Program-made: the position numbers and the translations under genes
Shown: piece after piece, positions 54,170 to 55,084 of the stretch
Layout: each line of letters opens with the position of its first letter
Numbering within the stretch: position 1 is the first letter of the stretch
Assembly: GCF_003334785.1 (NCBI RefSeq)
Contig: NZ_QOWV01000001.1
DNA: 64,000 bases
Strand: one strand, 5' to 3'
From: Escherichia coli
Lineage (GTDB): Bacteria > Pseudomonadota > Gammaproteobacteria > Enterobacterales > Enterobacteriaceae
The notes under the pieces: generated by a model
Database searches by the model: none
What the model saw: the letters and a program-made list of their open reading frames with translations, nothing else
What the model was told of the DNA's origin: nothing

Positions 54170-54705
54170 GATGGTGGTGGGGGAAGGATTACTCAGCGCT
54201 GCGCGCTTCGCCCTTCGGGTCGTTGCCTGCGGCAACGCTCTCTCGCTGGCGCTCAAGTCGAACCTTGGTCGAAGCTTCTCATCCTTCCCCGCTTGGGCAG
54301 AATATTTGATTGCGGATTCGTTTGAGAATTCCGGGGCTTTTGAAAGTGATGGTGGTGGGGGAAGGATTACTCAGCGCTGCGCGCTTCGCCCTTCGGGTCG
54401 TTGCCTGCGGCAACGCTCTCTCGCTGGCGCTCAAGTCGAACCTTGGTCGAAGCTTCTCATCCTTCCCCGCTTGGGCAGAATATTTGATTGCGGATTCGTT
54501 TGAGAATTCCGGGGCTTTTGAAAGTGATGGTGGTGGGGGAAGGATTACTCAGCGCTGCGCGCTTCGCCCTTCGGGTCGTTGCCTGCGGCAACGCTCTCTC
54601 GCTGGCGCTCGAGTCGAACCTTGGTCGAAGCTTCTCATCCTTCCCCGCATGGGCAGAATATTTAATTGCGGATTCGTTGGGAAGTTCAGGGACTTTTGAA
54701 AGTGA
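54170..54705 (-). repeat. Three tandem 178-bp repeats distal to the tRNA-Tyr genes, each starting with a copy of the tRNA 3' end
   Basis: gatggtggtgggggaaggatt recurs at about 54170, 54348, 54526 and 54704 (period 178 bp); one more partial unit lies in the inter-tRNA spacer (about 54824..54999). Confidence 0.85.
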
Positions 54706-54790
54706 TGGTGGTGGGGGAAGGATTCGAACCTTCGAAGTCGATGACGGCAGATTTACAGTCTGCTCCCTTTGGCCGCTCGGGAACCCCACC
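54706..54790 (-). tRNA. tyrV: tRNA-Tyr (distal copy)
   Basis: Revcomp reads GGTGGGGTTCCCGAGCGGCCAAAGGGAGCAGACTGTAAATCTGCCGTCATCGACTTCGAAGGTTCGAATCCTTCCCCCACCACCA (85 nt, anticodon GUA). Confidence 0.95.
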
Positions 54791-54999
54791 AGGGGTAATT
54801 CAAATTTTGAGGTAATGCTTGAGATGGTGGTGGGGGAAGGATTATTCGTCGCTTCGCTCCTCACCCTTCGGGCCGTTGCCTGTGGCAACGTTCTCTCGCT
54901 TTCGCTCGAATCGAACCTTAGTCGAAGGTTCTCACCCTTCCCCGATGAGTGCAAACTTTCACAATCTCACCGAAGTTACCACATCGCTGTGGTGAATTA

Positions 55000-55084
55000 T
55001 GGTGGTGGGGGAAGGATTCGAACCTTCGAAGTCGATGACGGCAGATTTACAGTCTGCTCCCTTTGGCCGCTCGGGAACCCCACC
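55000..55084 (-). tRNA. tyrT: tRNA-Tyr (promoter-proximal copy)
   Basis: Second identical 85-nt tRNA-Tyr sequence. Confidence 0.95.

Follow-up and report, generated by a model that had tools for sequence, protein, structure and literature searches.

What do the repeats that trail the tRNA-Tyr genes of Escherichia coli give rise to: a structured RNA, a peptide or nothing of use to the cell? We take up this question for a 64,000-nt stretch of E. coli DNA (contig NZ_QOWV01000001.1 of assembly GCF_003334785.1; the whole stretch is referred to here as the window), in which two tRNA-Tyr genes on the minus strand are accompanied by units of 178 bp. With high probability, the locus is the tyrT–tyrV tRNA-Tyr operon of E. 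coli together with its tRNA-linked repeats (TLRs), the RtT family of Rfam. That judgement is a joint one, made at the same level for the propositions that the RNA module of each unit would be the product, that the enzymes of tRNA maturation would release the units and that recombination would reshape the arrays.

The feature itself has been known for more than four decades, and what we report is the recognition of a known feature, not a discovery. The first description of TLRs is that of Egan and Landy in 1978 (cited in PMC8144298); for K-12, the same 1978 work gave 178 bp repeated 3.14 times and Bosl and Kersten described the rtT RNA in 1991 (both through PMC8144298 and PMC3318445). K-12 has 22 TLR members at ten loci, all sharing 18–19 nt of 3′ end with the upstream tRNA or rRNA gene, and none of the TLRs in tRNA operons is credited with a known function (PMC8144298). 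The present locus shows no difference in kind from the TLR family or from Rfam entry RF00391. It is the founding member, and work on tRNA transcription, processing and suppressor genetics has long used it as a classic model. What is added here is cross-order conservation with covariation, two positional subtypes, the non-conservation of the tpr and ychS frames, and polymorphism in the population. These results are useful for annotation, leave the overall picture unchanged and narrow the question of TLR RNA function without answering it.

Repeat units that copy the tRNA 3′ end

In the 64-kb window, ARAGORN detects just two tRNA genes. Both are tRNA-Tyr(GTA) and lie on the minus strand: tyrT (tRNA-Tyr(GUA), 55000–55084; Rfam tRNA, 53.4 bits) and tyrV (also tRNA-Tyr(GUA), 54706–54790). 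Each lies at the position equivalent to its K-12 namesake, and the two are identical across all 85 nt. Tandem Repeats Finder reports one array (54166–54724, period 178, 3.1 copies, 97% matches, no indels, score 1053). A repeat search gives the same family and adds a fourth copy at 54819–55021, 66% identical without gaps; this diverged unit is held in the 209-nt spacer between tyrT and tyrV (54791–54999).

All four units are full-length members of RtT. The Rfam model RF00391 matches them with 137.5, 134.2, 134.2 and 132.9 bits over model positions 1–130 of 130 (E-values of 1e-29 to 1.5e-28), about three times its gathering threshold of 45 bits and far beyond chance. They also stand where TLRs stand, directly downstream of tyrT or tyrV and on the same (minus) strand. 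Phased from the 19-mer shared with tyrV, and delimited by Tandem Repeats Finder, alignment and Rfam, the tandem units occupy 54547–54724 (unit 1; RtT module 54528–54659, 137.5 bits; the counterpart of K-12 rttR, 54528–54698), 54369–54546 (unit 2; module 54350–54481, 134.2 bits) and 54191–54368 (unit 3; module 54172–54303, 134.2 bits). The array closes with a terminal partial unit (54166–54190, minus strand), the ‘0.14’ copy seen by Tandem Repeats Finder and in the alignment, which consists of the last 19-mer (54172–54190) and a few bases. The module of the spacer unit, of a diverged ‘spacer-type’, spans 54825–54956 on the minus strand (132.9 bits) and ends in the exact 19-mer as well. Each unit is built from an AU-rich linker of ~47 nt followed by a structured module of ~130 nt. 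In this strain, unit 3 is an exact (100%) match to unit 2, and unit 1 departs at ~5% of positions.

The last 19 nt of all four units and of the terminal partial copy match the tRNA 3′ end exactly (19/19). This 19-mer, AATCCTTCCCCCACCACCA, includes the CCA and occurs exactly six times, with its 3′ ends at 55000 (tyrT), 54825 (spacer unit), 54706 (tyrV) and 54528, 54350 and 54172 (units 1–3). Beyond it, the tyrV/unit 1, unit 1/2 and unit 2/3 junctions share another 13 nt (TCACTTTCAAAAG), so that a junction of ~32 nt is repeated.

Every one of the 5,426 complete E. coli genomes has a megablast match to the region, and at the best match, 99.9% identical, the RefSeq features are four copies of a small RNA (sRNA), ‘RtT sRNA, processed from tyrT transcript’, and two tRNA-Tyr genes. 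Compared with the K-12 tyrT–tyrV–rttR–tpr locus, the window has the same genes in the same order, the same narI and purU flanks, two identical tRNA-Tyr genes, a 209-nt spacer with its unit and 3.1 tandem 178-bp units, with 11 substitutions over 2652 bp (99.6% identical). Placing the K-12 MG1655 annotation on the window by an offset of 1,232,538 puts rttR at 54528–54698, tpr (b1229) at 54549–54638 and, on the opposite strand, ychS at 54171–54446. The 171-nt rttR begins 8 nt past the tyrV CCA, and its 3′ end coincides exactly with the CCA of the first repeated 19-mer.

An initial annotation, made from the letters of this stretch, had already described much of this anatomy. Its two identical minus-strand tRNA-Tyr genes, its three tandem 178-bp units (at coordinates that proved accurate) and its further unit in the inter-tRNA spacer are all borne out, and its identification of the units with RtT agrees with the Rfam matches, the RefSeq label and the equivalent position of K-12 rttR; aligning the units, as it had suggested, gave the identities reported above. 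One point needs rewording. It had each unit begin with about 19 nt of the tRNA 3′ end: the copies are indeed exact, but where a unit ‘begins’ is a choice of phase, and in the released RNA the copy forms the 3′ end.

Conservation of the RtT fold

Covariation carries the case for a conserved RNA. The cmscan alignments of the four window units contain no flagged non-canonical pairs, and the Rfam structure, applied to 138 distinct homologues, leaves 98.4% of cells paired; sliding the partners by 1–3 columns lowers this to 40–56%. Eight pairs show changes on both sides. Because the alignment behind these figures was fitted to the model, it leans towards pairing; even so, the slid controls and the presence of multiple pair types make the conservation robust. 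From this alignment, RNAalifold arrives independently at the central hairpin and at a longer form of the second hairpin. An extended structure, with this longer second hairpin and a third one, has 15 pairs with double changes in 178 cells, one of which occurs as UA 83, CG 32 and GC 20 times. On the evidence of these aligned sequences, selection acts on the RNA structure across Enterobacterales.

The same alignments modify the published consensus and separate two positional subtypes. Covariation supports a longer hairpin at columns 51–57/63–69 than the two pairs drawn in the Rfam RtT consensus line. An extra 5-bp hairpin (columns 112–116/122–126), outside that line, is intact only in the tandem subtype; in the inter-tRNA subtype, its two middle pairs are broken. 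The spacer unit of the window belongs to this second subtype, as do 21 of the 22 inter-tRNA units of other species.

The module is closed by the tRNA copy itself. Its 5′ arm (GGGGAAGGAU) pairs with the repeated tRNA 3′ end (AUCCUUCCCC), leaving CACCACCA as a tail, and the wider 5′ arm (GGGGAAGGATGAGAAGCTTCGA) reproduces the tRNA T-arm and acceptor 3′ strand in inverted form at 19 of 22 nt, a match reached by 0 of 500 shuffles. We also considered whether the module might be a degenerate tRNA copy and set the idea aside: direct similarity to the T-arm amounts to 11 of 12 nt, which 21 of 500 shuffles match, and is non-significant. In the predicted minimum free energy fold of the tyrV–unit 1 precursor (54528–54790, minus strand; −95.1 kcal/mol, z = −3.5), the RtT 5′ arm is paired to the 3′ half of the tRNA, and the downstream 19-mer to the 5′ strand of the tRNA acceptor, an arrangement that would compete with the cloverleaf.

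Distribution across species

The comparative set comes from one pattern scan of species-representative genomes, which yielded 118 loci; a covariance model trained on the window's own four units gives 187 matches in the first 100 of these. At every locus with upstream DNA in view, the units lie on the same strand as, and shortly downstream of, tRNA-Tyr. There are one to six full units per locus (105 loci), with a period that is mostly 167–181 bp, and the taxa include Enterobacteriaceae, Pectobacteriaceae, Erwiniaceae (Pantoea), Yersiniaceae (Serratia), Budviciaceae (Pragia) and Morganellaceae (Xenorhabdus). At least 18 of the 19 nt of the upstream tRNA 3′ end are kept in 127 of 161 units, and variants of the tRNA are tracked by the units, for example CCCCCGCC in Pluralibacter.

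Among the larger arrays, one in Enterobacter ludwigii (L055, 1447–2410) has six tandem units with a 167-bp period; it and the array of E. coli 2013C-4991 described below are the largest seen. A different operon context was also encountered: in Acerihabitans (L008, 312–1121), Sodalis (L053, 5775–6412) and an Enterobacterales metagenome-assembled genome (MAG; L077, 4676–5314), RtT lies between tRNA-Tyr and tRNA-Gly in a Thr–Tyr–Gly–Thr operon, which is of the tyrU type and not the tyrTV type.

A few loci carry labels from outside Enterobacterales. Two, labelled Bacillus and Euryarchaeota, contain zero units and are probably chance pattern matches. The others are labelled Martelella alba (L089) and Chryseobacterium sp. 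(L111), labels that we take as given, and a Cellvibrionaceae MAG (L033). In this last, contig JALUYN010000029.1 has an RtT-like core at 2804–3060 that scores 42 bits with the window-built model and follows tRNA-Gln; the unit ends in an exact copy of the tRNA-Gln 3′ end (AATCCTTCCACCCCAGCCA), on a single MAG contig for which mis-binning is possible.

Copy-number variation within E. coli

The initial annotation had named a copy number invariant across strains among the findings that would speak against it; we found wide variation. We sampled the E. coli matches systematically (60 rows) and fetched ten loci. Under the sampled matches there are one to four annotated RtT units, some matches having zero, together with one or two tRNA-Tyr genes. 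The fetched loci have one, two, three or five tandem units and a spacer of either 209 nt with a unit or ~34 nt without one, and the single-tRNA form is also present. At the upper end, E. coli 2013C-4991 (L128, 8651–9792) carries five tandem units and the spacer unit, with IS66 between narI and the array. At the lower end, the sequence type 131 (ST131) strain E. coli O25b:H4 (NZ_CP015085.1; L003, 1–6090) has a single tRNA-Tyr gene and no RtT within 6 kb downstream. The natural range of zero to five tandem copies is ready material for dosage work.

In this ST131 strain, narI is not adjacent, and immediately after the lone tRNA-Tyr gene comes a cluster of genes (KAS III-like, epimerase, MBL hydrolase, F390 synthetase-related, PAP2 phosphatase, sterol desaturase and fatty acid desaturase). 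This lipid-metabolism cluster looks like an island or a rearrangement at the tRNA 3′ end. Elsewhere, many E. coli genomes show BLAST breakpoints at or near the ends of the repeat array. Whether the 19-mers act there as integrase attachment sites was considered and rejected: in the two cases that we opened, an IS element (IS66 in one, IS4 in the other) has inserted between narI and the array, and no integrase is present.

The comparison with K-12 gives a view of how the arrays may change. Nine of the 11 differences from K-12 fall in unit 2 (54427–54514), and at the two sites that were checked, 54433 and 54471, unit 2 of K-12 has the unit 1 base and unit 2 of the present strain the unit 3 base. 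The clustering in unit 2 and the presence of unit 1 bases in the K-12 copy suggest gene conversion or unequal exchange between units.

A proposed model for release of the units

Taken together with the K-12 annotation, the anatomy suggests how the RNA module could be made. Transcription would start at the tyrT promoter, for which a promoter scan gives a candidate on the minus strand at 55135–55162 (−35 TTTACA, 16-nt spacer, extended −10 TG-TATGAT). It has 10 of 12 matches plus the TG extension and lies ~50 nt upstream of the tyrT 5′ end. A single precursor would then contain, in order, a tRNA, the spacer unit, the second tRNA and the tandem units. Each unit boundary copies the tRNA 3′ end with its 13-nt trailer, and so would duplicate the tRNA 3′-processing site; we infer that the nucleases that mature tRNA-Tyr, by an endonucleolytic cut in the trailer and trimming to the CCA, also cut every boundary and divide the tail into units. 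The products would be discrete, unit-length RtT RNAs ending in CCA, such as the 171-nt rttR. The ends of K-12 rttR, 8 nt past the tyrV CCA and on the next CCA, agree with such boundary processing. Putative release as a discrete, stable RNA draws on what RefSeq and K-12 annotate and on literature that PMC3318445 and PMC8144298 cite. By homologous recombination, whether among units or between tyrT and tyrV, the array would grow, shrink and become homogeneous. What is conserved as a product is the RNA module, and not the Tpr peptide or the antisense open reading frames (ORFs).

We looked for an intrinsic terminator on the minus strand after the array and found none, which would fit the Rho-dependent termination inside the repeats that is reported in literature of 1978–81, including work of Kupper and colleagues in 1978. 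One of the remaining K-12 differences touches the promoter: position 55131, in the GC-rich discriminator between the tyrT −10 element and the start, is substituted, the transcribed strand reading GCGTCCC here and GCGCCCC in K-12. The discriminator has been linked to both the stringent and the growth-rate control of tyrT.

Weighing the alternatives

Several observations weigh against assigning the RNA a strong cellular role, or against particular steps of the model. In a screen of 99 sRNAs, RttR is listed as without effect on biofilm, motility and fimbriae (PMC4606813), and an earlier starvation phenotype was withdrawn (PMC8144298). Some E. coli carry a single unit and the ST131 strain has none. 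On its own, the 171-nt rttR folds no better than shuffled sequences (z = −1.06), which makes stability alone uninformative and is why we rely on covariation instead. As a mimic of an acceptor stem the unit is imperfect, the tail after the closing helix (CACCACCA) being 8 nt long, against 4 nt in tRNA. And the proposed processing route is itself drawn from sequence and from K-12 annotation.

The screen and the withdrawn phenotype also speak for the view that the units have no function. They could be self-propagating by-products of recombination or slippage, or relics of an element that targeted tRNA 3′ ends, which conversion homogenises and whose RNA is released incidentally. E. coli strains differ between zero and five tandem copies without obvious cost, no function is known for them (PMC8144298), and the units are often identical within one genome, as concerted evolution would have it. 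This view nevertheless meets the conservation described above: the ~130-nt core is kept across several Enterobacterales families and beside tRNA-Gln in one Cellvibrionaceae MAG, pairing in three internal hairpins is maintained by compensatory changes, and the inter-tRNA subtype keeps its position across genera (21/22). A further point against it is that the breakpoints seen in E. coli are IS66 and IS4 insertions and not integrase-mediated. We consider functionless units unlikely, though of the alternatives they have the strongest claim.

At the other extreme, the RtT module might be a selected, functional RNA and not processing debris. Acting in cis, its 5′ arm could have two alternative partners, the upstream tRNA's 3′ half, as in the modelled precursor, and its own copy of the 3′ end, and so tune the folding and maturation of pre-tRNA-Tyr. 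Acting after release, it could mimic the tRNA acceptor and titrate some factor that binds tRNA 3′ ends, for instance a processing nuclease, the CCA-adding enzyme or a tRNA-targeting toxin; copy number would then set its dosage. Covariation across Enterobacterales and the predicted precursor fold are compatible with such a function and neither shows it; we rate this stronger claim as improbable, in either version.

RrA, RrB and RrF, the TLRs that follow 5S rRNA in rrnA, rrnB and rrnD, are of the same class: they are released from stable-RNA precursors, and their 3′ ends copy that of the upstream gene and are proposed to recruit the same processing enzyme (PMC8144298). They differ in that Hfq and CsrA bind them in vitro and in their GGA motifs; the 19 TLRs of tRNA operons, the tyrT units included, score below 0.01 for CsrA binding in the same paper (PMC8144298). 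The functional sRNA sponge 3′ETS-leuZ, from a tRNA 3′ external transcribed spacer, is likewise a by-product of tRNA-operon processing that comes from the transcript tail (PMC8144298). It is a single unstructured spacer that base-pairs with sRNAs; RtT units, by contrast, are repeated and highly structured, end in the copied tRNA 3′ sequence and are not known to have a partner.

Coding potential of the repeats

If the repeats instead served to encode a small basic peptide, the product of the locus would be a protein. The initial annotation had mentioned such a peptide as proposed, and K-12 indeed lists tpr, for a ‘protamine-like protein’, at the equivalent of window positions 54549–54638. The ORF list has an intact frame of 29 codons and a stop there on the minus strand, within unit 1, the product of which is the same as K-12 Tpr, and the E. 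coli strain with five units has three intact tpr copies. Yet the frame is kept in only one of the four window units: it runs for 9 codons in units 2 and 3, and for 5 in the spacer unit, before a stop. The full ORF is missing in five of nine sampled E. coli strains. Further afield, 106 of 150 units from other Enterobacterales species stop after 5 codons (consensus GAC-TAA) and ~12 keep 29–30 codons, 37 of the 150 have no ATG at the start and frameshifts are common. The sole Shine–Dalgarno-like sequence (GGAAGG) abuts the tpr AUG with zero spacing and lies inside the closing helix. An NCBIfam search with Tpr and with the three plus-strand ORFs described below returned no family match, and our literature searches turned up no ribosome-profiling or proteomic support for translation of tpr and nothing usable in small-protein surveys. 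Because the ORF is not conserved even within E. coli, the peptide is unlikely as the functional product, and a locus whose purpose is to make Tpr seems to us very doubtful.

On the plus strand, the ORF list contains three overlapping frames antisense to the repeats and the tRNA genes: 54171–54503 (110 aa, roughly ychS), 54310–54699 (129 aa) and 54488–55093 (201 aa). They are long and have ATG or TTG starts, and K-12 still lists a ‘putative uncharacterized protein YchS’. The frame of each changes at every unit boundary, since 178 = 3 × 59 + 1, so that consecutive units are read in different frames, and one of the ORFs crosses both tRNA genes in antisense. In 38–57% of units, none of the three antisense frames contains a stop, a consequence of base composition. 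The annotation of the 99.9%-identical strain by the Prokaryotic Genome Annotation Pipeline has no coding sequence here, and the ychS-like ORF, 110 aa here and 91 aa in K-12, cannot exist in strains with a single unit. That these ORFs are real protein genes overlapping the repeats is scarcely credible, as the initial annotation had concluded in calling them translations of the repeat. With neither frame conserved, tpr and ychS are best treated as doubtful annotations.

Flanking and neighbouring features

The operon is flanked by purU (55244–56086, minus strand) and narI (53311–53988, plus strand); the last of the 11 differences from K-12 lies in narI. A terminator scan places the narI terminator at 54007–54028 on the plus strand, convergent on the operon. 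Between this terminator and the end of the array are palindromes like those of repetitive extragenic palindromic (REP) elements (54040–54135). The REP core GTAGGTCGGATAAG, at 54071–54084, occurs once in the window, where 0.02 chance matches are expected.

Elsewhere in the window, at 36785–37920 on the plus strand, Rfam finds three rdlD antitoxin RNAs (36785–36850, 37320–37385 and 37855–37920) of 91.4 bits each and spaced by 535 bp. They are probably the ldr/rdl long direct repeats of K-12, a type I toxin–antitoxin triplet.

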